From positions 1-13,342 of IMG/VR virus record IMGVR_UViG_2513237361_000015: DNA of 13,342 bases; one strand, given 5' to 3'. Position numbers and translations under genes: made by a program. The DNA is from a virus. Its lineage: Duplodnaviria > Heunggongvirae > Uroviricota > Caudoviricetes. Every line of letters begins with the position of its first letter. The stretch's first letter is position 1. A model generated the notes under the pieces. The model was not told the origin of the DNA. It did not search any database and was given only the letters and a program-made list of their open reading frames with translations. Shown piece after piece: positions 1-13,342 of the stretch.

Positions 1-982
1 TTAGTGAATATATCGAAAAAATACTTTTAAGCTAAAATTGCGGGTCAGATACGGCACCAGTGAATAGTTGATAAATCCCAGCCCCAGCTCTTCGATATTG
101 TTGAAGGTGGCGCGATCGGTGTTCTGCACCATGTGCAACGGCACCCGGAACAGACGACAGATTTCTTCAAGCTGAAACTTGCGGGTTTCCAGGAACTGGC
201 TGTCCTCGGCGTTCAGCGCCATCGACTTCCAGTCCAGCCCCATCTCAAGGATCATCGGGCGGTGAGCATTGCCAAGCCCGGTGTGACGCTCCTCAAAATC
301 TTTCTTCAGGCGCTCATAAGCCTGATCTGACAGCGTCTGCTCTGTACGCAACACACCCGACGTCACCGCGCCATTGCTGAACAGTCTGGCCCCGTGCTCT
401 TCGGTCGCGCCGCCAGCGATATTGCCTCGCGGGCATAGGCGATGGGATTCAGCCCCACCAGCCGTCCAGCGTCAGCGTGCGCACATGCCAGATATCTTCC
501 TGGCTCAGTACATCCGTGGAGCCGTCCGGGAATGTGACCTGATAGACCGGCTCCCAGCGACTGTTAAGCTTCGGTACCACACAACCGGGATCGACGGGCA
601 GCAGTTCAGCCACTTCGCCAAATGCTTTCACTTTATAGGCGTAAAAGTTGCCCCGCAGGCACAGACAGGTGACCACCAGCTCCCAGAACTCCTGCGGCGT
701 CATATAGCCATTGGGATGCGTGGAGATCAGCTTATGCAGACGTTCGCCAGTGGCTCTCTGCTTCAGGCTGCCGTTCAGGTGATACAGGTTGCAGGGCAAC
801 ATCCCGACCGACTCCGCCAGCACCCTGACACAGGAAAAAACCGCCGTCAGTCGCATGGCCCGCTGGCTGCTGATCTGCTTTCCGGTATAGGTGTGGTAGG
901 ACAACCCGATAGCATCCGCCAGCTCTGCTGGCGTGGTCACCGGTGCGTCACTTTTTCGTTGAAATAATCCCGAAAAGAACAC
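1..982 (-). pseudogene. Phage portal protein (HK97 family), disrupted by two frameshifts and 3'-truncated
   Basis: Minus ORFs 449..982 and 1..366 give portal-like sequence (N-terminal part ending TLTLDGWWG; C-terminal part with FQLEEICRLFRVPLHMVQN motif). The reading continues in a third frame as LNPIAYAREAISLAA between them, so two 1-nt shifts lie in about 400-455 (one at the C4 run 454-457). Total is about 330 aa and the last 12 codons are AT-rich. GTG start at 982 with GGAGG 6 nt upstream. Confidence 0.7.
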
Positions 983-1164
983 TATTTACCTCCGCCGACA
1001 GACGACTGTGTACGGTCGAGATATCGCGCCACCAGCCACGACCAGAACAGGCACAACGCCCCGGCAACAACAAACCCAGCCGGGGGATAAATCAGCCAGG
1101 CACCATACGCCAGCAAAAGCGCCCCCAGCACGCCCACCAGAGGCGCGAGAATCAGCATGATCAT
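982..1164 (-). CDS. Small hydrophobic protein (60 aa, two predicted TM helices) between terminase and portal
   Basis: ATG at 1164 preceded by GAGG with 5-nt spacer directly after the TerL stop; stop TAG overlaps the portal GTG (TAGTG). Sequence is almost entirely hydrophobic. Function unknown. Confidence 0.45.
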
Positions 1165-1175
1165 AATTACCTCAG

Positions 1176-2909
1176 TTAAAGCGAGCGGATCCCATAGGAC
1201 TCAATGTGGTCAGACAGCGTGTCTTCTTTCTCGTACAGCATGGCTCTGCCAACCGCCATAATCAGCGCAACTGCACCATCGATTTTGTTTTCCGCCTGCT
1301 CTTTGACGGGCTTCACCACATCATCGTTACCCGGAATGGTTTTGCCGACCACGTTGCCGATACACCAGGTCATGATGGGATTGCCATCATGATGAAAGCG
1401 CCCCGATTCAATTGCCGCTTCCAGCTCTTTCATCGGGTCGGACATGTTGGTGTAGTTCTGAATGATAGTGATGGGGTTCAGGTCTTCATCAGCAAGGTCA
1501 TGTGACAACCCGGTCGCCCCGAAGGGGTCGATGGGTGACTCACTGACCGGGCTGATTTTGTTCGCCGCTTTGGCCTCCTCGAGGATGTAGCGATAATCCA
1601 CCTCCGCACCATCGGTAACGGTCAGAACGCCCATTTCCACCCATTTCTGAAAGCGTTCGGCTGTCCGTCGATCTTCATTTTTCTCGACGCTGTACACCGT
1701 GTCATACGGTACCCAGAAACGCGGGGCCACACTGTAGTAATGCGTTTTACCGTCAATCTCGCGGGTATAAAGTCGCGCCATACTGTTCATATCCAGCTTA
1801 CGCGCCAGGTCAAAGGCCAGAATGCACGGCTGCCCCTCGAACTGCTCAAGGGTCAGTGATTTATCCTCGCAGCTCTGCCAGCTCACCAGATTGAAATACG
1901 CCGAACGCGCCGACACCCAGATATTGAGGTGTTTTGTTTTAAAGACGTTTGCCAGACGGGCGTTATTTTTCGCACGCTGCTGCTGACTTAACAAAAATTC
2001 GCGATAAACCGACACGCCAATATTTGGATTGGCTTTTTCCAGCACCTGCGGGTCGGTCCAGTCATCGCCTTCGTCAACGGTATAGATGATCCCGAACAGT
2101 TCATCGTTGGGCACCGAGCCGTTGAGCATCTCGATGACTTCCCGCCGCTTGTCGTAGCACGGCCCCTCAATGTTGTACCCGGCAGTAGTAATGGCCCACA
2201 TCAGTGGCTGACGTCGCGCCCCCATCCCGGTAAGCATCGTGGTGTAAAGCGCATCGGTGGCGTGCTCGTGATATTCATCCACCACGGCACAGTGGGGTGA
2301 TGAACCATCACCGGGGTTACCGATCAGCGGTTCAAAACGCGCACCATCCTCCGGACGGTTCATGTTTGAGGCGTTAACCTCAATCCCGAACGCTTCCGTC
2401 AGCATGGGTGTGCGTTTACACATCAGTCGTGCCGGACGAAAGACTTCCCATGCCTGTTTCTCCGTCGTGGCACCGGAATACACTTCCGCGCCGAACTCGT
2501 TATCACAGGCAAAACAATACAGGGCAACACCGGCAGAGATTGCCGATTTGCCGTTCTTACGGGGAATTTCGGTATACACCTCCCGGAAGCGGCGCAACCG
2601 GGTGCCTTTATTGACCCAGCCAAACGCACAGCAGATCACAAATAGCTGCCACGGCTCCAGCGTGATGGGCATCCGTTTAAATGCCCACTCACCCTTGGTG
2701 TGCGGCAACAGCTGAATAAATTTGGCGGCCCGTTCAGCCAGGTCCTTGTCGAAGCGGTAACGAAACGACTTACTTTTTTCCGCCATCAGGTCATCAAGAT
2801 GGCGCTGGCAGGCCTGAATCACAAACTGGCAGGCAACAATCTTTCCGCGCACGACATCCCGGGCATACTGATTTGCAGCATTTACGTTGGGGTAAGATTT
2901 CCGGCTCAT
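1176..2909 (-). CDS. Phage terminase large subunit
   Basis: 577-aa ORF with a Walker A-like PRKNGKSA motif and the overall look of lambdoid/HK97-type large terminases; start ATG overlaps the reconstructed TerS stop (ATGA). Confidence 0.9.
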
Positions 2910-3399
2910 GATTCGATAATTTTCAGAAACGGGTTAGTGGCTTTCTTCTTCCCCGCCAGGCCAATCAGACGCTGGCGGCTGCTGGGGTCGAGTCCGAGCA
3001 TTGCCCCCGTCTGCTCATCTCGGACTCCTGTTCTTTTTTGGCGGTCAGCTCCGGATTTTTGACCCTGCCGCCCATTGCACCGGTGATGGTGTTGCCCTGT
3101 ATGGCAATATTTTTCACGGCACGTCGCCAGAACTCATAGGCCACGCACCACCGCTCAAGTACCGCGAGGTCAGTCACGCACAGCAGGCCCTGACCGCAGA
3201 GTTCTTTGGTTGTCAGTTGCCACATGATCGTGGCGAGAGGGAGATCTTCTTCAGCGAACCACTCCGGTGGCTCAACACCTTTGATGGGCGTAAAAACAGG
3301 TTCATCTTTATTCAGGGCTCGCTTGCCGGGGTTTCCGGCCAGCGCCTTGCGCGCCGTTGGCTTGGGGCGACGCCCGGAACGCCCCGCCGTTCCAGCCAT
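2910..3399 (-). pseudogene. Phage terminase small subunit (P27 family), apparent 1-nt frameshift near its 3' end
   Basis: N-terminus MAGTAGRSGRRPKPTARKALAGNPGKR is P27-family-like; ATG at 3399 with AGGAG 8 nt upstream. The given frame stops at 2965, but the adjacent frame is open ([31 protein letters not shown]) down to a stop overlapping the TerL ATG. The switch point is the C5/G5 run at 3005-3009. Confidence 0.75.
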
Positions 3400-3408
3400 A
3401 TGCGGCAC

Positions 3409-3525
3409 TCCTGGTTAAATTTCATTTTTCGCGGGTATAAAAAAACGATGGGGCGGGCAGTCCGGAAGACGTCAGGTCACAGGGATTTGACCCGCCCCTC
3501 CCCCGCAGATAGTTGAGAGTTATTA
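3409..3525. other. Putative cos (cohesive end / terminase recognition) region
   Basis: Intergenic GC-rich segment between HNH endonuclease and terminase small subunit, the position cos occupies in HK97-type phages. On the minus strand it carries GGGGCGGG (3450-3443) and, about 41 nt further 3', its inverted copy CCCGCCCC (3401-3394). Confidence 0.3.
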
Positions 3526-3876
3526 TCACTTCAGTCGTTCACGGGCCGTCTTCGTCTTATGACACGGCCAGCACAGGCTCTGCAGATTGCAGTCTGCATC
3601 AGTGCCGCCATGCGCTTTAGGGATGATGTGGTCAACGGTTTTCGCCTCACGCACCACACCGACACGCAGGCACAACTGACACAGGCCTTTGTCACGCTTC
3701 AGCACGCGCGCGCGGATAACATCCCACTTCGAACCGTAGCCGCGCTGGTGACGGGATTGTCCTGGCTTGTATTGTTTCCAGCCTTCGCTTTTGTGGCTTT
3801 CGCAGTAGCCTGACGGGTCAGTGGTGGTTTGGCGGCAGCCGCGAACGCGGCAGGCTTTTGGGGTTCGTGGTGGCAT
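3526..3876 (-). CDS. HNH endonuclease (terminase-associated)
   Basis: ORF from ATG 3876 (GGAG 5 nt upstream) has paired Cys clusters (CRVRGC...C, CQLC, CWPC) and the DHIIPKAHGG HNH core; sits immediately upstream of cos and terminase as in HK97-like phages. Confidence 0.85.
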   Translation of the reverse strand: MPPRTPKACRVRGCRQTTTDPSGYCESHKSEGWKQYKPGQSRHQRGYGSKWDVIRARVLKRDKGLCQLCLRVGVVREAKTVDHIIPKAHGGTDADCNLQSLCWPCHKTKTARERLK

Positions 3877-3885
3877 GCTGGCTCC

Positions 3886-3912
3886 AATAAAAAACCCCGC
3901 GACGCGAGGCTT
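3886..3912 (-). terminator. Rho-independent terminator after the 67-aa membrane protein gene
   Basis: Minus strand reads GCCUCGCG-UC-GCGGGG followed by UUUUUUAUU: about 6-bp GC stem (one G-U pair) plus U6 tract. Confidence 0.5.
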
Positions 3913-3941
3913 AGACAGAAAAAACACCGGATAAGATCTGG

Positions 3942-4145
3942 TCATTCTTCCTTTTTAATAATGACTTCTCGAGGGCGCAATTGTTGGATAGCACGACAAA
4001 TACAATATGGAATAACTGCCCATGCTACTCCCATTGCTGCACCTGCAGCCTGTTGTGGAGCACTCTGAGCACCGAAAACCCCGAGGATTCCTTCAATAAA
4101 TCCAATAGCACTACACAAAAGACTGATGACCCAGAGAATTTTCAT
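3942..4145 (-). CDS. Small membrane protein (67 aa, two predicted TM helices), function unknown
   Basis: ATG at 4145 with AAGGAG 9 nt upstream; two hydrophobic stretches separated by a short Ala/Gln-rich segment, charged C-terminus KKEE; followed by a terminator. Confidence 0.5.
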   Translation of the reverse strand: MKILWVISLLCSAIGFIEGILGVFGAQSAPQQAAGAAMGVAWAVIPYCICRAIQQLRPREVIIKKEE

Positions 4146-4262
4146 AAACCCAAACTCCTTTTAAATAAACACTTTACTAGGATAATTCTCATAAAATGTT
4201 AGTAAAGTATTTTCAGGAAAATAGCGTATCACTGCCTATTTTTGACACTGATGCCGGGATAA

Positions 4263-4688
4263 TTATTCCGGTCGCTGGAGTTGCTCATGATGATACAGAG
4301 CGAGAATCAGGTCATAAGACCCTTGCCTGTCTTTGTAACCAGTTTTATCAACCAATTCAGCTTTACTGATTCCGGGTAAATCAAGAATCAGATTCGCAAC
4401 TTCAATTGCCCTTTGGTACAACTTACCGCCCTTTTTCTCCCCATGCAGTGGTTTTACATTCTTGAGGTAACCGCTATCCGCTAGGGCGAGAAATGTTGCC
4501 CTTGGGCATATCTTCTTTCTTGACGATTCGCTTTCTGTAACCTCTGCGACAGCTGTATCCCATGCATCACGAGGAGGCATTGAGCTATCAGCAACCAAAT
4601 GATAAGCGATTAAAGCGGCGCGCGCGTATTGAGACATAATGCATCCATATACAAAAATCTCATGATAAGACTTTTCTAATATGAACAC
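4263..4688 (-). CDS. Hypothetical soluble protein (about 124-141 aa), no recognisable domain
   Basis: Open frame immediately 3' of Rz on the minus strand in a lower-GC segment (about 42 percent in a 60-nt hand count). Start is uncertain: GTG 4688 overlaps the Rz 3' end, ATG 4637 has only a weak RBS. Confidence 0.4.
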
Positions 4689-5119
4689 TGTGATCTCACA
4701 TACTCTTGCAGGCCATTCAATTGGTTAGTTATGGTTTCGATGCGCTCTCTGAGAACGAAATAATCCCGTTGAGCGGTGTCAGTAAGTCTGGGGCTGGAAG
4801 CATCATCCACGCCGGAGGCGGCGGTGGTTTTATGCATGTCCGGACAGACTGCTTTGACGTGCAGCCACTTACGACCAGCAGAAACATCAGCACGAAGACT
4901 TTCGATAGTCGCGTTAGCATCAGCAAGCTCCTTTGTATATCTGGCATCGAGTTCAGCTACATTACTTTGACGTTTCTGCATGTCAGCGATAATGGATGCG
5001 GCCTTATCGCGCTGCTTTTTGTAGGTGATGGCGTTATCACGGTAATGATTAACCGCCCATGACAGGCAGACGATGATGCAGATAACCAGAACGGAGATAA
5101 TCGCGGTGACTCTGCTCAT
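4676..5119 (-). CDS. Rz: Rz i-spanin (inner-membrane lysis protein)
   Basis: 147 aa starting [34 protein letters not shown], with TKELADA and ASPRL...RDYF...RER motifs closely resembling lambda Rz; N-terminal TM anchor plus coiled-coil-like body. Confidence 0.9.
4729..4920 (-). CDS. Rz1: Rz1 o-spanin lipoprotein, embedded in Rz in the +1 frame
   Basis: Embedded ORF has lipobox LLVVSGC and CTSKQSV...KPPPPPAW...TPLNGIIS, matching lambda Rz1; internal Met start chosen from the longer 4729..4947 ORF. Confidence 0.85.
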
Positions 5120-5165
5120 ACCTCAATCTCTCTGACCGTTCCGCCAGCTTCTTTGAATTTTGCAA

Positions 5166-5393
5166 TCAGGCTGTCAACTTTATGCTCAAACTGACCATAA
5201 CCAGCCCCGGCAGTGAAGCCCAGATATTGCTGCAACGATCGCCACTGCGTTCTCTTCGGTGCGCTGCTGTTTGGCTTTCTCTGCTACTTTTCCACAACCA
5301 CGAACATTGCCAGTAAAAAACGCTGAGTGCGGCTGCAACCAGCACAACAATACCGCTAGCAATAATTTCTATGATTCCCATTATCTTTACCAT
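5166..5393 (-). CDS. Small hypothetical ORF (75 aa) with N-terminal TM segment; possibly frameshifted
   Basis: N-terminus MVKIMGIIEIIASGIVVLVAAALSVF is TM-like but the rest of the given frame is low-complexity. The adjacent frame after the A6/T6 run (5315-5320) reads TGNVRGCGKVAEKAKQQRTEENAVAIVAAISGLHCRGWLWSV, which looks more protein-like. Weak RBS. Confidence 0.3.
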   Translation of the reverse strand: MVKIMGIIEIIASGIVVLVAAALSVFYWQCSWLWKSSRESQTAAHRRERSGDRCSNIWASLPGLVMVSLSIKLTA

Positions 5394-5420
5394 CTCAGCA
5401 GTTTAGTTTTTGCAAGCATA

Positions 5421-5447
5421 AAAAAACCGCCCGAAGGCGGTTTTATA
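5421..5447 (-). terminator. Strong rho-independent terminator (usable in both directions)
   Basis: AAAAAA-ACCGCC-CGAA-GGCGGT-TTTT: 6-bp stem with tetraloop (UUCG on the minus strand), U-tracts on both sides; lies just 3' of the 93-aa gene. Confidence 0.6.
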
Positions 5448-5462
5448 ATAAATATACTAACC

Positions 5463-5744
5463 TCAGTCTTCCGTTCCATCTGGGTTGACAGGTTTGGTGA
5501 TTGCTTTCAGTCGAACAACTGGATCACCATCACCGTTGCTTACAACTGTTCTAATGGTCTTGTCATCCCGAGGGGTAAATGTTACTTCTACATCAAATCC
5601 CATAGCTGCATGTTCATCACACAAATAAGCGTTAGTATTGTGGGCCCAAATTGCAGATAAATTATCCAGTTCACGTCTCAGACGCACACCGATAATTTTA
5701 TCTGCATGTCTACCACATCCTTCAATGATGCATGTTCCTGACAT
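5463..5744 (-). CDS. Cys-rich small protein (93 aa), possible zinc-binding, function unknown
   Basis: ATG at 5744 with AAGGA 7 nt upstream; Cys at positions 5 and 10 plus a later LCDEH Cys/His pair suggest a small zinc ribbon; placed directly 3' of the methyltransferase. Confidence 0.5.
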   Translation of the reverse strand: MSGTCIIEGCGRHADKIIGVRLRRELDNLSAIWAHNTNAYLCDEHAAMGFDVEVTFTPRDDKTIRTVVSNGDGDPVVRLKAITKPVNPDGTED

Positions 5745-5796
5745 TGTATTTTCCTTCTTTGGTTAACCAAGGAGAAAACTACCATAAACCAGAAAC

Positions 5797-6720
5797 CTAT
5801 TCAGCTTTTTTGCTGTAACTTACTACGCTAGTTAACCTTTTTCTTTCCAGCCCAAGTCGTTCTTTAGCTACTTGGCAGTGTTCATCAAGCAATTCAAAAC
5901 CTACTGACTTTCTGGACAGGCGAGATGCCGCCACAAGTGTAGTGCCTGAGCCTGCAAACGGATCCAAAACAACATCGCCTTCTGTTGTAAACAAACGAAT
6001 AAACCATTCAGGAAGAACTTCGGGGAATGCTGCACTGTGGCCTTTGTTACCACATTCAGTTGCCATGTGCAGCACATTCGTCGGGTATGCCATTTCTCTT
6101 CCCTGCCAGTTTGAAATGTTCTTTCCGAACCCACTACCAACTCGCGACTCATCCCTCATCATGTCCCGCGAGCTTAATTTTTTTAGCCTCTCATTCTTCC
6201 AGTCCCCCACAGGAACCATAACCGCTTCTTGGTACATTGCAAACTTTCTGTTTTTTGTAAAGTGCAGACAGCGTTCCCAAGAATCTCTGAATCTATTAGG
6301 CCATTTACCAGGGAATGAATTCTTCTTATGCCAGATATATTCTTCTGTCCACAGCCAACCCAGCTCTCGCATTTTAAGAATAAGCTCTAAAACATATGTA
6401 TGTCTTTCGCCATTCACTACCTTCTCTTTAATGTTAAGCACAAAGGAGCCTGAAGGCTTAAGAACCCGTAGCAGTTGCTCCGCTATAGGTGAAAACCAGT
6501 CAACATACTTGTCAGGGGCAATGCCACCATAAGTCCTCTTTCGTTGATCTGCATACGGTGGTGAAGTAACGATGAGATCTACAGAAGAATCGTCCATCAT
6601 GGTTAGCAACTCAAGACAGTCTCCTTGATAGAGATTTATCTCATCAGTTTTTATATTAATTGTCGCTTTTTTAAGCATTCCATACATCTCCAGCGAAAGT
6701 AACTGAAGAATAGCAGCCAT
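5797..6720 (-). CDS. DNA methyltransferase, beta-class N6-adenine/N4-cytosine type
   Basis: Motif IV SPPY (TSPPYADQ) lies N-terminal to motif I DPFAGSGTT, the order typical of beta-class amino-methyltransferases; SPPY leans towards N4-cytosine but is not decisive. Likely true start is ATG 6678 (MLKKATINIK, GGAG 9 nt upstream). About 37 percent GC in a 60-nt hand count. Confidence 0.85.
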   Translation of the reverse strand: MAAILQLLSLEMYGMLKKATINIKTDEINLYQGDCLELLTMMDDSSVDLIVTSPPYADQRKRTYGGIAPDKYVDWFSPIAEQLLRVLKPSGSFVLNIKEKVVNGERHTYVLELILKMRELGWLWTEEYIWHKKNSFPGKWPNRFRDSWERCLHFTKNRKFAMYQEAVMVPVGDWKNERLKKLSSRDMMRDESRVGSGFGKNISNWQGREMAYPTNVLHMATECGNKGHSAAFPEVLPEWFIRLFTTEGDVVLDPFAGSGTTLVAASRLSRKSVGFELLDEHCQVAKERLGLERKRLTSVVSYSKKAE

Positions 6721-6793
6721 TCTTCCTGCGGTCCATCTCTTTCTACCCAGTTTTTTAAATTACATGGGTGCTTGGATAACTTGCCGCCGTCCC

Positions 6794-7405
6794 TCACACC
6801 AGCACCGATTTCGCCAGGTTAAACAGCGCGCGGCGTTTATCCAGACCGTTACTACCGCCATTAATAAGCAGCGTGACGCGTCCCAGGTCGCCAGAATGAA
6901 GCAGGCAACCGCGGGAAGCATAGAACCACGCAGCTGAGCGCGCGGCGTATTCATCCTGTTCCAGCAATTCAGGCTGGGTAACAAGGTCGAGTTTTAGTGC
7001 GTAGCCACAGATGCAATAATTACGGAGACCAGTGATTTGAATTAATCCTCTACCACGATATTTCCAGCCATCACCGGGTGCTTTGTTACCCAGTCGGTTG
7101 CTATACACCAGATTGGCAATAGCATCCTGACGAGCTGCATGTCCGGATGTTCTACCAAGGGCATCAGCCTGCTGCTGTGTGATCCTCTTTCCGAACGTCG
7201 CCACCAGCGCAGATGGTGTGTAGTTAAAATTTTCAACTACGGCGCTAAACCCCATCGACTCATGGCCTACCTGAGCGATAAACATTGCCTGATCCGCTGG
7301 TGCTGTAATGCCGAATTCCTTCATCGCCGCATCAATGTGCGGAAACCAGCGCGCAGCCAGCCCGGCGCTAATACCAGCCGCCTTTTGAAATAATTGTTGG
7401 TTCAT
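6794..7405 (-). CDS. Endolysin, glycoside hydrolase family 19 (chitinase-like phage lysozyme)
   Basis: 203 aa with AARWFPHI...EFGIT...AMFIAQVGHES.GF...ENFNY...GDGW.YRGRGLIQITG...QPELL.QDEYAARSAAWF...INGG.NG motifs characteristic of GH19 phage endolysins; ATG overlaps the upstream stop (TAATG). Confidence 0.9.
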   Translation of the reverse strand: MNQQLFQKAAGISAGLAARWFPHIDAAMKEFGITAPADQAMFIAQVGHESMGFSAVVENFNYTPSALVATFGKRITQQQADALGRTSGHAARQDAIANLVYSNRLGNKAPGDGWKYRGRGLIQITGLRNYCICGYALKLDLVTQPELLEQDEYAARSAAWFYASRGCLLHSGDLGRVTLLINGGSNGLDKRRALFNLAKSVLV

Positions 7406-7686
7406 TAGTGCCTCAGATGATCAACCAGACGTGCAACGTTGCCTCTGACGGCCACCAGCACGGAAAGGAAAATAGTGTTCGCCACGATAATGGGCCATGA
7501 GGAATGAGGATAAATCCCACAGAGATAGGCCAACGGAACAGCACTGTATGTAACAGTAATCAGCCAGGCTAAACGTGAAACCCAAGGACGATGCCGCGAA
7601 TCACCACGACGATAAAACATCAGAGTAATAACAACACAAGCACATAACAGCGCATTTATAGTTGCTGTCGGGTCATTTAGCTCCAC
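7405..7686 (-). CDS. Membrane protein (93 aa, about 3 TM), holin/antiholin-like lysis accessory
   Basis: Hydrophobic ORF between the putative holin and the endolysin, overlapping both neighbours; assignment rests on position and hydrophobicity only. Confidence 0.45.
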   Translation of the reverse strand: MELNDPTATINALLCACVVITLMFYRRGDSRHRPWVSRLAWLITVTYSAVPLAYLCGIYPHSSWPIIVANTIFLSVLVAVRGNVARLVDHLRH

Positions 7687-8059
7687 CTGAACCTCCCCGG
7701 CGCGTTATGAGCGCCACCAGCGAGCCGATATCCTGATTATTCAGGAACGTCAGGATTTTAACGGCTAAAGCAGAGACGATTACGGCACCAATAGCATCCA
7801 GAGGTTTATCACTGTATCCGGTCAAGTTCGCCAGCTTGGAGCCAACCAACCCAGAGCAAAGAATCCCGGCAATATATGACACGATAAAATATGCCAGTCG
7901 ACGCGATGCACTCAGATCTGCTGCTGTTGCTATGTAGAATACAGCCCCTGCAAATGCACCAAATACAACGCCGTAATCAGTTCCGGTCAGCAGTCCATAA
8001 ACACTGGCACCCGTCAGGGCACCACCAGCCAGCCCAGTACCGGAAATTGGATCGGACAT
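7673..8059 (-). CDS. Putative holin (128 aa, multiple TM segments)
   Basis: First gene of the lysis cluster after the Q-proximal cargo; Gly/Ala-rich TM segments and charged C-terminus; ATG 8059 preceded by GAGGGGG with 4-nt spacer. Confidence 0.55.
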   Translation of the reverse strand: MSDPISGTGLAGGALTGASVYGLLTGTDYGVVFGAFAGAVFYIATAADLSASRRLAYFIVSYIAGILCSGLVGSKLANLTGYSDKPLDAIGAVIVSALAVKILTFLNNQDIGSLVALITRRGGSGGAK

Positions 8060-8172
8060 TTAGCCCCCTCTTAATTGCTGTGAGTCCTCTCAGGTATGAG
8101 GGGAAATAGGCTCAGGCTTCACGGGCTGGATATATCAACAAAGCACGTAACGGATGATTCCCGTGATCCTGA

Positions 8173-8199
8173 AATAAAAAAGCCCCGCTATTACGGGGC
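8173..8199 (-). terminator. Rho-independent terminator after the 213-aa moron gene
   Basis: Plus strand AAATAAAAAA-GCCCCG-CTATTA-CGGGGC; on the minus strand this is a 6-bp GC stem followed by UUUUUUAUUU. Confidence 0.6.
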
Positions 8200-8219
8200 A
8201 GTTAATAGAATTATAAAGT

Positions 8220-8861
8220 TTAAAAGTTTAAAGAAACCATAAAGCTACCAGGCTCTGCACCAGCTTCTTTATTTATTTCTTTACGGATTACCTCATTAAC
8301 CTGAAAAGCCTCATTGTAAACTTTTTCTAAGTTAATTGACGCCTTCATATTATAGTATGTTTTTTCCTCACAAACATATAACCTTATCGGATATGGCCTA
8401 GGGTTGATTGCCTTCCAGTGGGAGATCACAAAATTATAAACTGCAATACCATGACCTTTCATCTTCCCTGCTGTAACATCAATGTTTAGCTGATCTAAAT
8501 ACTCATCGAAGTGTTGCAAGGTGTTTCTCACCCTCACGGAATTAATTTCCTTAATTTCAATATCTTTTATTTTTTGTTGAAGGTAATTACTTCGCTCAAT
8601 ATGCAATCTGAATTGTTCAGGGGATTCTTCCCTAGTCTTATTTTTAGGAACTGCGATTAGTTTCTTGACGTTAGCCGCATCTGAAAGAATGCTATTTATT
8701 AATATATGAATATTGTAATCAATTTTAAAGTAGTAACCAGCATCAGGAAGTGGTGTCTCATGAAAGAGCTCTTCACAGCGTGTTTTTATCGAATGAGTTA
8801 ACAACCATAATTCGTGCAAATAAATAAAATTAAGTTTCATTTGCTCAAAGGTTTTTGACAT
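8220..8861 (-). CDS. Hypothetical protein (213 aa), AT-rich moron in the Q-to-lysis hotspot, no recognisable domain
   Basis: Uninterrupted ORF with ATG 8861 and AGGAG 8 nt upstream, about 30-33 percent GC in hand counts against about 52 percent for the phage backbone; own promoter-like element and terminator; no TM segments or motifs I recognise. Confidence 0.65.
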   Translation of the reverse strand: MSKTFEQMKLNFIYLHELWLLTHSIKTRCEELFHETPLPDAGYYFKIDYNIHILINSILSDAANVKKLIAVPKNKTREESPEQFRLHIERSNYLQQKIKDIEIKEINSVRVRNTLQHFDEYLDQLNIDVTAGKMKGHGIAVYNFVISHWKAINPRPYPIRLYVCEEKTYYNMKASINLEKVYNEAFQVNEVIRKEINKEAGAEPGSFMVSLNF

Positions 8862-8889
8862 AGCGAACTCTCCTTTTCAATAGTCCGCT

Positions 8890-8919
8890 TTTATAGCATT
8901 TACATAAGGGGCCTGTGAA
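8890..8919 (-). promoter_or_regulatory. Candidate sigma70 promoter for the 213-aa moron gene
   Basis: Minus strand TTCACA (8919-8914), 18-nt spacer, TATAAA (8895-8890), about 30 nt upstream of the ATG. Confidence 0.3.
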
Positions 8920-9016
8920 TTACTATTCTGTTGCTTACCACACTCTCGCAGTGGCCGCGCTCATGCCTTTGAGACCGTAGTCAGGGGTATCTCATGAATC
9001 CCTCACCTCTAACCGG

Positions 9017-9037
9017 AGAACGATTGGCGATCGTTCT
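9017..9037. repeat. Perfect 8-bp inverted repeat AGAACGAT-(5 nt)-ATCGTTCT
   Basis: Read directly from the sequence; no flanking U-tract on either strand, so not a terminator; candidate protein-binding palindrome or RNA hairpin in the late leader. Confidence 0.5.
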
Positions 9038-9202
9038 GGAGTACCGGCACACCTCTTCTTTATTAACCCTAACCAGTGTGTGTTGCAGTTCGTACCTGCA
9101 TCTGGCTCTCATGGAGACTCGGGACCGCATCACGACTGCGGATTTGCCTATCGGCTGCGGTCTATCCGTTTACTGGTGCATTTTCTTACCCTCCAGAAAA
9201 GC

Positions 9203-9226
9203 AAAAACCCCGCCGAAGCGAGGTTT
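9203..9226 (-). terminator. tR'-like rho-independent terminator in the late-transcript leader
   Basis: Minus strand CCUCGC-UUCG-GCGGGG followed by UUUUUGCUUUUCU, about 45-60 nt downstream of the candidate late promoter; strand-specific, since the plus-strand version mispairs. Confidence 0.5.
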
Positions 9227-9273
9227 GTTATGATTTCGTTAACGGCAGACATACAAAGCCCATCGTTAGGAAA

Positions 9274-9302
9274 ATCCTAACCAGATTTTTTGAAAAATGC
9301 AA
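9274..9302 (-). promoter_or_regulatory. pR'-like late promoter (candidate site of Q engagement)
   Basis: Minus strand TTGCAT (9302-9297), 17-nt spacer, TAGGAT (9279-9274), beginning about 32 nt after the Q stop codon, the canonical lambdoid position. Confidence 0.4.
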
Positions 9303-9333
9303 GAATCATGTCGCTATCTTCGGCGAAAATCAT

Positions 9334-10086
9334 TTATCTCGTCACTTTTCTTAATTGCGCCTCAGCATATGCTTCTTCCTGCCAGCACTTTGTCACCAGT
9401 TTATCAATGACATCTGCATATCCTTTGTACCACTGATAATCCGTCAGGTCTGGTACCAGCTTCTGGACATGATGCCGCGCCAGTGTGGTTGGTAAACGGC
9501 TAAACCGGTTTCCATTGCAACGCCCACAAATCTTATAAACAGGCATGCCATGAAGCCGGGTTCTTTTTTCATCCAGGACAATACCTTTACCCTTACACCC
9601 TCTGCACGCTGTGCTGACTTCTCCCTTACCATGACAATGCTGACATAGTTCCTTCACCCACTCTTCCTTGATAACAGATTCCCCGTTTCTGGAGTGTTTC
9701 ACCACTTCGCGCAATACATTATGAAATCCCGTACCTGCACAATGCTCACAGCGAGCCTTACTTGCCGCAGATCTGGAATAATCAGCAAAGGCAAAATTCA
9801 CAAGGTAAGGAATGATCTGTAGCCGGGTTTCTTCACTCAATTTATTCAATGTCGGGTTATCCAGTGCCATCGCGTAATTGAGCAGACCTTCAATCGCAAA
9901 CTGAGGATCCTGAACACCAACTTTTGCCAGGAATAAGGCAAACCCAAGCGGTGCTTTCGACTGCACCATCCCCTGCGCAGCCATCACATCCGTAATCGTT
10001 AAACCACCTGAGCCTGTCGCCGGTGCGTCATCGCTCAATTTTGGAGATTTTGGGGAGTAATATTTTGGTAAGGCTTCAAGGTTCAT
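9334..10086 (-). CDS. Q: Late-gene antitermination protein Q (lambda Q family)
   Basis: Matches lambda Q at YSPKSPKLSDD, TDVMAAQGM.QS, FAFADYSRSAAS.ARCEHCAGTG and C-terminal KVTR; carries an extra Cys/His-rich segment (CQHCHGKGEVSTACRGCKGKG, CGRCNG). Start chosen at ATG 10086 (GGAG 7 nt upstream, just after the DUF968 stop). Confidence 0.85.
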   Translation of the reverse strand: MNLEALPKYYSPKSPKLSDDAPATGSGGLTITDVMAAQGMVQSKAPLGFALFLAKVGVQDPQFAIEGLLNYAMALDNPTLNKLSEETRLQIIPYLVNFAFADYSRSAASKARCEHCAGTGFHNVLREVVKHSRNGESVIKEEWVKELCQHCHGKGEVSTACRGCKGKGIVLDEKRTRLHGMPVYKICGRCNGNRFSRLPTTLARHHVQKLVPDLTDYQWYKGYADVIDKLVTKCWQEEAYAEAQLRKVTR

Positions 10087-10099
10087 GCTCGTTCTCCAC

Positions 10100-11095
10100 T
10101 TACGCCAGTACGCCAATTGCCAGCGCACGATCGATAAAACGAAATATCAGCTCCAGTTGGGAGCCATACTTCTCTTCAAATGCCACGGTATCCGCATGCA
10201 GTTCGTCGTGATGCTTTCTGCACAAAGGCAACACAAAGAGGTCATGCGCTTTTGTACCCATTCCCCCCTGACCGTGGCCTATCAGGTGGTGGGGATCATC
10301 AGCAGGCTTTCCACAACATGCACACGGCTGTGTCTTAACCCAGCGCGTGTACTTTTCATTAACCCAGCGGCGACGTTTGGGGCGTAACATAAAAGACTCC
10401 GGCGACTCCGGCTCCACTTTCAGCGCCAGCACCTTTTTCGCTTTATCCTGGATGATGCTGGTGGCAGGAACCGAAGGCACAAGGTCACTTTCCCGGGTGA
10501 CAGACGGCACAACAGGCTTCGGTAATCTCAGTGCCTTACGGGCTGCACTTTCCGGTAAGGCATCCGCCAGATCATTACGAACCAGCCACCAGCACAGTTC
10601 CGGCATTGTCACAACGTGACTGTCATCAAAACCGAGATCCCGACGCACAACAGACAACACCCAGCGGGCACAGTTATCCGTTGCCATTGATTCCAGCCGT
10701 TCCGTGAATTGATCGCGCAGCTGGTTATCACAGTGCCAGCACAGACGGATTGCGCCCGGAGCGTGTCGCATTGTGGTCATGTTCTCGCTGTGCCAGTCGG
10801 AATGAGGCCACTGGCAGCCCTTTTCACGAAGTAACCAGCTTTCAAGACATTCCACGCCACCAGCACGACGGATCACTGCCTCATTGCGGAACACGGCCCG
10901 AACAGCAGGATCATCCGCCAGCGGTTGTGATGCCGCGGGAACGGCACCACTGGCGAAAGATGAATAACGTTCCGGCTCAGGCTCCAGCAGTACACGCCCC
11001 TGCATAAACAGGGGCATCAGCTCTGAACCTGGTCTGAACAATACGATCCCCATACGCGGGGCTATTTCAGGGGTCAGTAGTGCTCTCACGGTCAC
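10100..11095 (-). CDS. DUF968-family prophage protein with HNH-like Cys/His C-terminal motif
   Basis: 331-aa ORF whose C-terminus (CACCGKPADDPHHLIGHG...LCRKHHDELH) fits the zinc-binding motif of DUF968 proteins found next to Q in lambdoid prophages; start GTG 11095 or 11089. Confidence 0.65.
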   Translation of the reverse strand: MTVRALLTPEIAPRMGIVLFRPGSELMPLFMQGRVLLEPEPERYSSFASGAVPAASQPLADDPAVRAVFRNEAVIRRAGGVECLESWLLREKGCQWPHSDWHSENMTTMRHAPGAIRLCWHCDNQLRDQFTERLESMATDNCARWVLSVVRRDLGFDDSHVVTMPELCWWLVRNDLADALPESAARKALRLPKPVVPSVTRESDLVPSVPATSIIQDKAKKVLALKVEPESPESFMLRPKRRRWVNEKYTRWVKTQPCACCGKPADDPHHLIGHGQGGMGTKAHDLFVLPLCRKHHDELHADTVAFEEKYGSQLELIFRFIDRALAIGVLA

Positions 11096-11096
11096 C

Positions 11097-11636
11097 TCAA
11101 TGAACGGTATCGAGCAGCTTTAACAGCTCAGGGAATCGGGATTCGAAGAAATGCGGCTGCGTCTCGCGCGGATTTGCGGGACTGGTGATGTTCTTGCCGA
11201 ACATGCAGCCTTTCGCTGTCAGCGACCAGAATTTTTTGATGTTGTTAATCGCGGTACGGCTGTATCGTTCGCGCTGCTCGACGATCCCCAGCTTCACCAT
11301 CTGGTGATATGCCTGATTAGCTGTCAGGTGGATACCATACTGCTTCAGCAGTGCACTCAGTGACAGCGTGGGGCGGCTTGAACCATCAGGCGCGTCAGCA
11401 GGAGCATCAATGGCATAGCGCGGTGCCAGATTCGGTAAGCCAACAGCCTCCTGGAGTTTCTGACAGGCACCAAGCACTGAAGAGTTAGACAGGTTTAACT
11501 CCCTGCGCATAAAGTCCAGCAGAATCACTCCAGCCTGCATCTTGTCAGCAGCCTGCCCGGATAATTTTTCCGGTACGCTGGTTACCATGTCGAAAGTACG
11601 GATCACCTTCAGATGGAATGACGGGCTGATCCACAT
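11097..11636 (-). pseudogene. Phage antirepressor-like protein, 5'-truncated (only the last part of a KilA-N domain plus the C-terminal domain remains)
   Basis: Recognisable sequence begins at DYVCKELVYAYAMWISPSFHLKV, which resembles the C-terminal end of KilA-N domains; the upstream part of the 318-aa ORF is low-complexity and overlaps the plus-strand fimbrial gene. First in-frame ATG is 11636. Confidence 0.45.
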
Positions 11637-11787
11637 TGCATAGGCATACACCAGTTCCTTGCAGACATAATCGGATTTTGAACTGCGGTTGCCAGCAGAG
11701 GGTACACCTGCAGCATGGCAGGCGGGGCTGAATGTGACGGTTACAGTACAGTGATGGTTGCAGGGATATAAGGAGAAAAAAAGAGAA

Positions 11788-12552
11788 ATGAAAAAGGTGA
11801 CGTTGTTTCTGTTTGCTGCCGGCCTCCTGCCTTCCTGTGTACTGGCCTGGAACACGCCGGGAGAAGATTTCAGCGGAGAGCTTAAGCTGGAAGGCCCGGT
11901 GACCAGCACCCGTAACCCGTGGGTATGGAAAGTCGGACAGGGAAATGAAGGCCTGGAGGTTAAACAGAGCCGCGGTGTTCGTGACGGTGAGCAGGCAATT
12001 CCGGTCGCACTGCCGGCGATGCCCGTTTTACTGGGAAAAACCACCCTGACCACACCGGCAGGACGTGAGGGGCTTTCTCCCCGTGTCAGTTACGGAAAGG
12101 GTACTGAGGGATTTTCATTTGAATGGACAGCACCAGGCGTGGCGGAGGTGACGCTGCCTGTCACCGGAGATAATAACGTCCGGGCAGGCACTTTTGTTTT
12201 CAGAATGCAGGCTGCGGGGGTGTTGCGCCATGTGAAGGACGGACAGCCGGCGTATGCCGGTGTGTATGACGACCTGAATGTGAATGGTCTGCCTGGTGAA
12301 AGCGCAGCCATGAAGACTTCTGATATTCCGGGTGTTCTGCAGAAGATGTTCAGTGGCGAAGGCCCCGGCTGGCTGCAGACAATGACCATCAGTGGTTATT
12401 CAGGAGTGAGTCATTTCAGTGATGCCTCCCTGCGTCAGGTCGAAGGTGCGTATGGCGCACAGATGGTGGCGGGCAGTGGTGAATTACGTCTGAACGGTGC
12501 AATGCCGGAACGCTGGCGGGTGTCACTGCCGGTAAGTATTGAGTACCAGTAA
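11788..12552 (+). CDS. K88/F4-family fimbrial subunit (FaeG/FaeH-like)
   Basis: Signal peptide MKKVTLFLFAAGLLPSCVLA, then WNTPGEDFSGELKLEG...WVWKVGQG...MPVLLGKT, recalled from memory as resembling the mature N-terminus of K88 FaeG; C-terminal strand ends SIEYQ. ATG 11788 with AGGAG upstream. Confidence 0.55.
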   Translation: MKKVTLFLFAAGLLPSCVLAWNTPGEDFSGELKLEGPVTSTRNPWVWKVGQGNEGLEVKQSRGVRDGEQAIPVALPAMPVLLGKTTLTTPAGREGLSPRVSYGKGTEGFSFEWTAPGVAEVTLPVTGDNNVRAGTFVFRMQAAGVLRHVKDGQPAYAGVYDDLNVNGLPGESAAMKTSDIPGVLQKMFSGEGPGWLQTMTISGYSGVSHFSDASLRQVEGAYGAQMVAGSGELRLNGAMPERWRVSLPVSIEYQ

Positions 12553-12568
12553 ACAGGAGGGCGGCCCG

Positions 12569-13342
12569 GTGCTGAATATTATTCATCGTCTGAAGTCCGG
12601 TATGTTTCCGGCTCTGTTTTTTCTGACTTCAGCCAGTGTGCTGGCGCAACCGCTGACTATTCCTCCGGGCCACTGGCAGGAGGGTATGGCTGTGGGCGTG
12701 ACGGAATTCAGCGGCACGCTGTATGTCCGCGATGTGTCCTGGCAGTGGCAGCCCCGCGCTGTGCGTATGAGTTCTCCTGATGCTGTGCAGGCTGGCCTGG
12801 CAGCGGGTAAAGGTGGCATGGTCAGTGAAAGCCGGAGAGGGCAGGATTTTTATATTCTTGGCGGGCATACCACATCACTGACAACTGCCCGTCCGGGGCT
12901 GCAGCCGTCGGTGACATTGCTTCAGGTGACACCATCATCCCCCCGTATTGAGGCCCGGGGAGAACTTGCCCGGGGACAGGTACGTTACGGGGAAATCACG
13001 TTCACGCTGCGCCATCTTCTGGCATGGCAGGACAATATTACTGGCGGTCAGGGCTGGAGCGTGGTCAGCGGAGAGGTGACGCCGGAGGCCGAAAAACAGG
13101 TGAAACGCCAGTTATGGCAGGTGAACGGCTATGAATGGACCCCGGATTATGCCGGATTAACCGCACGTCCTGATGCGTTTATTTCAGGAACTGAGTCGCT
13201 GTTGTCACAGGGGAATGGCAGCCAGCATATTGCCGGTGCCTGGGTGATGTACCTGAGTGATGTGCGGGTGAATTTCCCCGGTGCTGAGGAGCCGGTAAAA
13301 CGCTGGCAGGGTAATCTGACACCGGTGGTGGTGTATTTCTGA
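12569..13342 (+). CDS. Second K88/F4-like fimbrial subunit paralogue, secreted
   Basis: GTG 12569 with AGGAGG 8 nt upstream; signal peptide (LNIIHRLKSGMFPALFFLTSASVLA-QP); same length class and W.W / FSG pattern as the upstream gene; ends VVVYF. Confidence 0.5.
   Translation: MLNIIHRLKSGMFPALFFLTSASVLAQPLTIPPGHWQEGMAVGVTEFSGTLYVRDVSWQWQPRAVRMSSPDAVQAGLAAGKGGMVSESRRGQDFYILGGHTTSLTTARPGLQPSVTLLQVTPSSPRIEARGELARGQVRYGEITFTLRHLLAWQDNITGGQGWSVVSGEVTPEAEKQVKRQLWQVNGYEWTPDYAGLTARPDAFISGTESLLSQGNGSQHIAGAWVMYLSDVRVNFPGAEEPVKRWQGNLTPVVVYF

Follow-up and report, generated by a model that had tools for sequence, protein, structure and literature searches.

A mobile prophage cargo gene with features of a solo HEPN-type RNase, located next to a covarying structured RNA

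We analyzed a 13,342-nucleotide (nt) stretch of viral DNA (Caudoviricetes; IMG/VR record IMGVR_UViG_2513237361_000015, positions 1 to 13,342; hereafter, the window) and focused on a gene for a protein of 213 amino acids (aa). We tentatively suggest that this gene encodes a ribonuclease (RNase) of the HEPN type that acts alone in abortive infection. The phage genes are on the minus strand of the window and are read from right to left. The 213-aa open reading frame (ORF; 8220-8861, minus strand) is located between the genes for the Q antiterminator (9334-10128) and a holin (7673-8059), the cargo slot to which the initial annotation of this DNA had assigned it. It is uninterrupted, as had been described, has an ATG start and a TAA stop, and encodes a predicted soluble protein of 25.1 kDa with a pI of 7.8. 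There was no signal peptide and no hydrophobic segment in the protein (highest Kyte-Doolittle 19-residue mean, 1.23; grand average of hydropathicity, -0.42), consistent with the earlier view that it lacks transmembrane segments. The GC content of the ORF is 33.8%, compared to 51.6% elsewhere in the window. The initial annotation had recognized this contrast and had put the GC content of the gene slightly too low (30-33%). The same difference was found in every context, with 31-34% GC in the ORF and its homologues and 48-51% in the flanking DNA.

The gene has its own putative expression signals, all on the minus strand and all found by reading the sequence. A ribosome-binding site, AAGGAG (8875-8870), is 8 nt 5' of the ATG. 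Upstream is a promoter-like element consisting of TTCACA (8919-8914), an 18-nt spacer, and TATAAA (8895-8890), and the latter is part of an extended -10, TGcTATAAA (8898-8890, with the TG at 8898-8897). Beginning 20 nt past the stop codon is an intrinsic terminator, GCCCCGtaatagCGGGGC (8199-8182) plus a T-run (8199-8172 in all), with a stem of 7 base pairs (six of them G-C), a loop of 4 nt, and then the T-run. The three signals had been reported by the initial annotation, and we found that the promoter-like element and the ribosome-binding site are conserved in homologues. The ribosome-binding site is kept upstream of homologues that include those in the Citrobacter and Enterobacter loci and in Yersinia prophages, and a TGnTATA(A/G)(A/C) block is kept in four contexts: the window and diverged homologues in three other prophage contexts. 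A comparable hairpin is found 3' of the Citrobacter homologue. A scan for consensus promoters called no minus-strand promoter at the ORF because the sixth base of the -10 hexamer, which here is TATAAA, has to be a T in that scan. DNA similarity between the window and the Citrobacter and Enterobacter loci begins at 8900, at the extended -10. From this boundary and the conservation of the TGnTATA block, we reasonably infer that an extended -10 promoter drives expression of the ORF.

The 213-aa gene appears to be real and complete. The chance of 213 open codons was approximately 1e-7 by a hand calculation in which about 7% of random codons are stops at the composition of the ORF. We considered that the ORF might be a degraded fragment of a larger gene, the condition named beforehand as a reason to dismiss it, and rejected this because the homologues are equally long (205-250 aa) and are matched over their full length. 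Nonsynonymous divergence (dN) among homologues was 0.20-0.42 and synonymous divergence (dS) was saturated; dN/dS was 0.07 in one distant comparison, the sole one that could be computed. Based on its full length relative to homologues and the conservation of the protein sequence, we conclude that the gene is genuine.

The gene has moved between different phage backbones and between two late cargo slots, as judged by comparing its neighborhood across related prophages. Cassette DNA was present in 7 of 5426 complete E. coli genomes. Gene 56 of phage mEp237 ('hypothetical protein') is the same gene and is likewise between Q and holin. A 1.1-kb block (8105-9211, minus strand) that contains the ORF cassette and the structured RNA described below is 97.9% identical in the window and mEp237. 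DNA similarity between the two is confined to this block, with none beyond it, and the Q, holin (93 aa), and lysin ('lysozyme') of mEp237 are annotated differently from the corresponding genes in the window. Prophages that have the Q of the window share sequence with it only to approximately 9177-9190 and then carry other content. Homologues with 47-69% identity in Citrobacter, Enterobacter, and Yersinia prophages are in a second slot, between the lysis genes and HNH/terminase, and phage-borne copies are always on the late-gene strand. Based on these sequence comparisons, we conclude that the 8105-9211 block is the unit that moved between phage backbones. By its anatomy (promoter-like element, gene, terminator, deviant GC content, and presence or absence among related phages), the 213-aa gene is a moron.

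Related late slots in E. coli BE2-5 (L001), in CUWW10 (L042), and in L043 and L041 hold other cargo. This cargo includes a DUF3800 protein (encoded on the opposite strand, in the Q-to-holin slot), an S1-family peptidase, and an SDH-family Clp-fold serine proteinase. The BE2-5 remnant also encodes, at its edge, a DUF262 protein. These proteins may be further candidates for defence or counter-defence functions.

The 213-aa protein belongs to a widespread family. We searched exhaustively with HMMER against 1.84 billion representatives (E <= 1e-3) and found at least 184 family clusters at 50% identity, almost all of 205-250 aa and aligned end to end. A genome scan identified family members in Gamma-, Beta-, and Deltaproteobacteria, Bacillota, Actinomycetota, Chloroflexia, and Bacteroidota, and the hosts of homologues include Acidithiobacillus, Nitrosomonas, and Desulfuromonas. 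All-against-all clustering of ORFs at 29 loci from many phyla revealed no conserved neighbor gene, and a Pfam census of 150 neighbors gave a heterogeneous mix that included GNAT acetyltransferases, integrases, and metabolic genes. Because there is no shared neighbor family, the gene probably works alone.

The host range argues against one of the functions that had been proposed for the gene. A lysogenic-conversion or host-directed virulence effector could be expected in this slot, which holds stx in Stx phages, and the Q-to-holin location is the one feature in its favor. An effector of this kind does not fit a protein that has neither a secretion signal nor a hydrophobic segment. Further, a family spread over environmental bacteria (the three genera named above, together with Bacillota, Actinomycetota, and Chloroflexia) does not have the distribution of an animal-host effector. 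We therefore consider this function very improbable.

The family has a nearly invariant motif that resembles the catalytic motif of HEPN RNases. The initial annotation had assigned no motif to the protein. We aligned 117 diverse members (18-69% identical to the query) and found R-N-x3-H at residues 112-117 (R112-N113-T-L-Q-H117; codons at 8511-8528, minus strand). R112 is kept in 116 of the 117 members, as is H117; the spacing from R to H is exactly four residues; and position 113 is polar in 116 members (N in 101, H in 13, and D in 2). The motif is in a conserved block, V-R-[NHD]-[ST]-[LIV]-E-H-F-D-E-[YR]-L-D, and the nearly invariant residues of the family are Y14, E17, R90, R112, E116 (Q in the window protein), H117, D119, D123, and Y162. 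HEPN RNases are dimers with juxtaposed Rx4H motifs and need no metal. Their motif is R-polar-x3-H or, more generally, Rx4-6H, with R followed by a residue that is 'mostly N, D or H' (PMC3710099). The 213-aa family, with its Rx4H spacing and a polar residue after R, falls within this definition.

The predicted structure of the protein is also compatible with a HEPN fold. HEPN domains are up-down bundles of four helices built from a pair of alpha-hairpins; an insert that separates helices 2 and 3 and a kink in helix 4 are often present, and the motif is solvent exposed at the junction of helices 3 and 4 (PMC3710099). An AlphaFold model made with the 117-sequence alignment (predicted local distance difference test score, 96.8; predicted template modeling score, 0.91) has four helices (11-35, 49-69, 81-97, and 110-130) in an up-down bundle, as in HEPN domains, followed by a C-terminal part in which a sheet of four strands (140-177) precedes a helix (178-196). 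In this model, the motif comes after a loop (98-109) and at the start of the last bundle helix, that is, at the alpha3/alpha4 junction, and the helix is kinked or broken at H117 (110-116/118-130). The top natural structural match of the model was a HEPN protein, and the top 60 matches in the structure search included HEPN-fold chains of the KNTase C-domain (6nlt), HepT (7ae2), Las1 (7y16), and YutE (1ylm). Because designed and generic four-helix bundles scored equally well, the predicted fold is compatible with HEPN and is not specific to it. The whole protein (bundle plus sheet) had no solved structural counterpart, and the sole resemblance in BFVD was to an uncharacterised Gordonia phage protein.

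The family is probably a new one among HEPN proteins. Scans of the 213-aa query with Pfam, NCBIfam, PHROG, and PADLOC gave no family match, consistent with the initial view of the gene as a candidate for an undescribed function. Literature searches for accessions of family proteins found nothing, and a search for 'mEp237' gave irrelevant matches only. As the protein sequences and the predicted model have the motif and the bundle of HEPN proteins and no profile matches, we favor a probable new HEPN family that is not a member of any named one.

Several observations weigh against assignment of the protein to HEPN RNases and to defence. No HEPN-family or defence profile matched the query, the 117 members, or the family consensus. 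PADLOC-DB v2.0.0 gave only stray matches, to CasR (E 0.004, one member) and Cas13a (E approximately 1e-3, 5 of 117 members), and none for the consensus; these matches are at the level of noise, and a PADLOC rescan of ten variants of the motif failed to localise them. When PDB sequences were searched, both the motif segment and two family profiles yielded coiled-coil noise only. An upstream acidic motif in helix 2, Ex3[K/R], is found in 'many' HEPN families, not all (PMC3710099). It is not evident here, and the conserved acid, E17 (107 of 117 members), is in helix 1. There are also more conserved polar residues (Y14, R90, D119, E120, D123, R160, Y162, and N171), which suggest a site that extends beyond the minimal HEPN site, or a different chemistry. 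Last, the distant homologues are among housekeeping and miscellaneous genes, and at the sampled loci outside of enteric bacteria there was no recognizable defence island or phage context.

One alternative is that the protein is a helical bundle that is not an RNase. The conserved R-N-x3-H-x-D-E-x2-D would then be a site for a ligand, nucleotide, or metal, and the protein would be a sensor, a regulator, or another enzyme. Non-catalytic HEPN-like domains exist, as do many unrelated four-helix bundles. However, the definition of HEPN specifies a polar N, H, or D after R, this exact four-residue spacing, and a motif located at the alpha3/alpha4 junction, as found here, and the top natural structural match is a HEPN protein. 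For these reasons, we think that a function other than that of an RNase is unlikely.

A different type of alternative is that the protein serves the phage itself during lytic growth, in counter-defence or as an RNase that shuts off the host or turns over RNA. Because the gene is within the late operon and has the same orientation, it must be read through by transcription that Q has antiterminated. Its invariable location on the late strand, from Q to holin or from lysis genes to terminase, is what would be expected of a late function, as is the structural relative in the proteome of a lytic-type Gordonia phage; the absence of a defence match in PADLOC also fits. On the other hand, the gene has a conserved promoter-like element of its own and an insulating terminator, and is rare and dispensable among otherwise similar prophages. 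It is also intact in decayed prophages that are no longer able to grow lytically, including that in the window and that in E. coli BE2-5, in which Q is a pseudogene, and most family members are in chromosomal contexts that are not those of phages. We consider a late function quite unlikely.

The reading that we tentatively favor, at somewhat less than an even chance, is that the 213-aa ORF encodes a solo HEPN-type RNase in a prophage-borne abortive infection (Abi) cassette. Three roles had been raised initially (anti-phage defence, abortive infection, and host-directed effector), and because of the conserved Rx4H motif and the helical-bundle fold, an Abi RNase is the most plausible of these, even as PADLOC finds no known defence system. 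This proposal builds on what the sequences and the predicted model provide: conservation of the gene, moron anatomy, mobility, no partner, and a near-invariant motif at the alpha3/alpha4 junction. By analogy with characterized systems, we infer RNase activity, dimerisation, latency, a trigger, and a role in defence. In the lysogen, the gene's own extended -10 promoter would drive synthesis of the protein, with additional late transcription reading through, and the protein would be held inactive in an oligomer. An infecting phage would then provide a cue, possibly sensed by the C-terminal beta-sheet module, that opens the oligomer, and the paired R112/H117 sites of a dimer would then cut RNA (tRNA, rRNA, or mRNA) without a metal. 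Translation would stop, the infection would be aborted, and sister lysogens would be protected.

The 1.1-kb block also contains a structured RNA of approximately 255 nt (9194-8938, minus strand), a separate module between a terminator-like hairpin 3' of Q and the ORF cassette. The hairpin (9205-9226, minus strand) is presumably the tR' of the late promoter, judging from the lambdoid layout. At its 5' start, the RNA has a Shine-Dalgarno sequence, GGAGG (9194-9190), and a three-codon minigene, ATG CAC CAG TAA (9181-9170). At its 3' end is an invariant block of 36 nt, CUCAAGGGCAUGAGCGCGGCCACUGCGAGAGUGUGG, that we found in 118 IMG/VR stretches. Most copies begin in the same way: 83 of 99 distinct copies start with a Shine-Dalgarno sequence and a minigene of one to three codons (MKH*, MKQ*, M*, and here MHQ*).

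Copies of the RNA are just 3' of pL, just 3' of tR', or just past the lysis genes in well over a hundred enterobacterial prophages (more than 100 prophage contigs). They include L041 (2886-3142), L043 (3001-3255), L044 (2501-2766), L045 (2501-2752), L046 (2468-2700), and L048-L165. Homologues at 72-85% identity in other E. coli prophages are in three kinds of place: after Q and tR', after Rz/Rz1 ahead of different cargo genes, and downstream of a cI-like repressor gene. In L046, a pL-like promoter with flanking operators is approximately 230 nt 5' of the RNA, and the RNA is followed by a 94-aa ORF and a terminator. Positions 2130-2240 of L046, 3' of the cI-like gene and its terminator, contain a TTGACG-18-TATCTT promoter between repeats of an operator-like sequence, ATACAGnTTTnTCTGT, and this looks like the pL/oL region of some immunity type.

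Covariation makes it close to certain that this is a genuine structured RNA. Among 53 non-redundant copies, the 43 predicted pairs form in 96.6% of cells, compared to 29-40% when the partners were slid. There were 197 double-compensatory cells, compared to 19-34 in the slid controls, and 22 of the 43 pairs had compensatory changes. None of 500 shuffles reached the observed values. The frequent G-U pairs indicate that the RNA strand is the strand of phage transcription.

The RNA appears not to correspond to a described element. We rejected a known Rfam family, as a search of Rfam 15 gave no match even at E <= 10. A text search of a literature library for the invariant 16-mer of the RNA gave no match, and there is no annotation of the RNA in mEp237 or phiKO2. 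We also rejected a put-type antiterminator, as put is approximately 70 nt with two stem-loops and the RNA is much larger. An antitoxin or other element coupled to the ORF was rejected because the ORF follows only 6 of 124 copies; the Citrobacter, Enterobacter, and Yersinia homologues of the ORF are without the RNA. The RNA might control transcription or translation (for example, by processive antitermination or ribosome loading), or might be an anti-defence RNA, and it may be a more novel object than the 213-aa gene. For the 1.1-kb insert behind Q as a whole, we propose a combined description: a new HEPN-like family with an RNase bundle and a beta-sheet sensor, of which this would be the founding phage-borne member and a partner-less immune sensor-effector, together with a new class of approximately 255-nt structured RNA. 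In this full form, the description is doubtful.

The remainder of the window is consistent with a prophage that has decayed (all features are on the minus strand unless noted). Upstream of Q (Pfam Antiterm, E 2e-54) are a DUF968 gene (10100-11095) and an ORF (11097-12053) that matches only the C-terminal end (30 residues) of the KilA-N profile and abuts a gene for a K88-type fimbrial subunit (11758-12549, plus strand); there are no repressor or replication genes upstream of Q in the window. A non-coding stretch of 470 nt separates Q from the 213-aa ORF. The next gene after the ORF encodes the first holin (Phage_holin_8, 7673-8059), and this is followed by genes for a second holin (7405-7686) and a GH19 endolysin (6794-7405), an inserted gene for an N4/N6 DNA methyltransferase (307 aa, PF01555; 5797-6720), Rz (4676-5119), and a 141-aa DUF6979 ORF (4263-4688) that overlaps the end of Rz. 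The map ends with, in order, an HNH endonuclease, a P27-type small terminase, a large terminase, and a portal whose reading frame is broken in two (449-982 and 1-366). The split portal and the KilA-N fragment that abuts the fimbrial gene indicate that this E. coli prophage is a remnant.

Two other AT-rich stretches are found in the window, both on the minus strand. One, a cargo island (5463-6720, 39-43% GC), interrupts the lysis cassette between the endolysin and Rz genes, and contains the methyltransferase gene and a 93-aa Cys-rich ORF without a family match. The other (3900-4690, 39-41% GC) carries the DUF6979 ORF, and its slot, from lysis genes to HNH/terminase, is that of the 213-aa homologues in the Citrobacter, Enterobacter, and Yersinia prophages.

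If the 213-aa protein is an active solo HEPN RNase, then it would represent a wide new family without an entry in Pfam or defence databases, and would join the short list of one-gene prophage Abi systems that now includes HepS and Tha. Its distinct C-terminal beta module could be the sensor of the trigger, and a single defence cassette would be exchanged by both late cargo slots of lambdoid and HK97-like prophages. Direct tests of the hypothesis are feasible, as the gene is small, can be cloned with its native signals, and is carried by mEp237, a phage in culture. The covarying, unannotated RNA at the starts of major phage transcription units may indicate an unrecognised layer of gene control in lambdoid phages.

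We compared the 213-aa gene and its product to known systems. Lambdoid phages carry morons, in the Hendrix-type definition, in the region from Q to S, including stx and bor/lom-type cargo. The 213-aa gene is like these in being a promoter-gene-terminator unit with deviant GC content that is present or absent among related phages, and differs in that its product is from a different, unannotated family. The integron-cassette HEPN family (Vpc_cass2, PDB 3JRT) is only 9-12% identical to the 213-aa protein; 3JRT (166 residues) consists of helices only, two of them extra, and lacks a beta module. The Pfam and PADLOC profiles of the lactococcal HEPN proteins AbiD/F, AbiV, AbiJ, and AbiU2 and of HepT, the toxin of HEPN-MNT modules, do not match the 213-aa family. 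In addition, HepT depends on an antitoxin, MNT, and other domains or partners are present in the case of AbiV and AbiJ.

The greatest likeness is to two prophage-encoded HEPN proteins. HepS (STM14_3211) is a solo HEPN Abi protein of the Salmonella prophage Gifsy-1, with R100 and H105, that is made constitutively as a latent tetramer and has no partner; its homologues are shorter than 250 aa and are found from Bacillota to Enterobacteria (PMC13043305). The LT2 Gifsy-1 record has no HepS gene. Like HepS, the 213-aa ORF encodes a small (<250 aa), standalone Rx4H protein from an accessory slot of a lambdoid prophage, with no partner or antitoxin gene. [quoted passage not shown] Tha shares with the 213-aa protein a prophage origin and an R-N-x3-H motif. 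In contrast to the 213-aa protein, Tha is 301 aa with a C-terminal HEPN domain, and has an inhibitor partner, Ith, with which it forms a noncontiguous operon adjacent to cI; there is no such partner here. Both HepS and Tha are switched on by tail proteins of incoming phages (PMC13043305, PMC11087260), and, by analogy, we believe that they are the closest worked examples for how the 213-aa protein might function.
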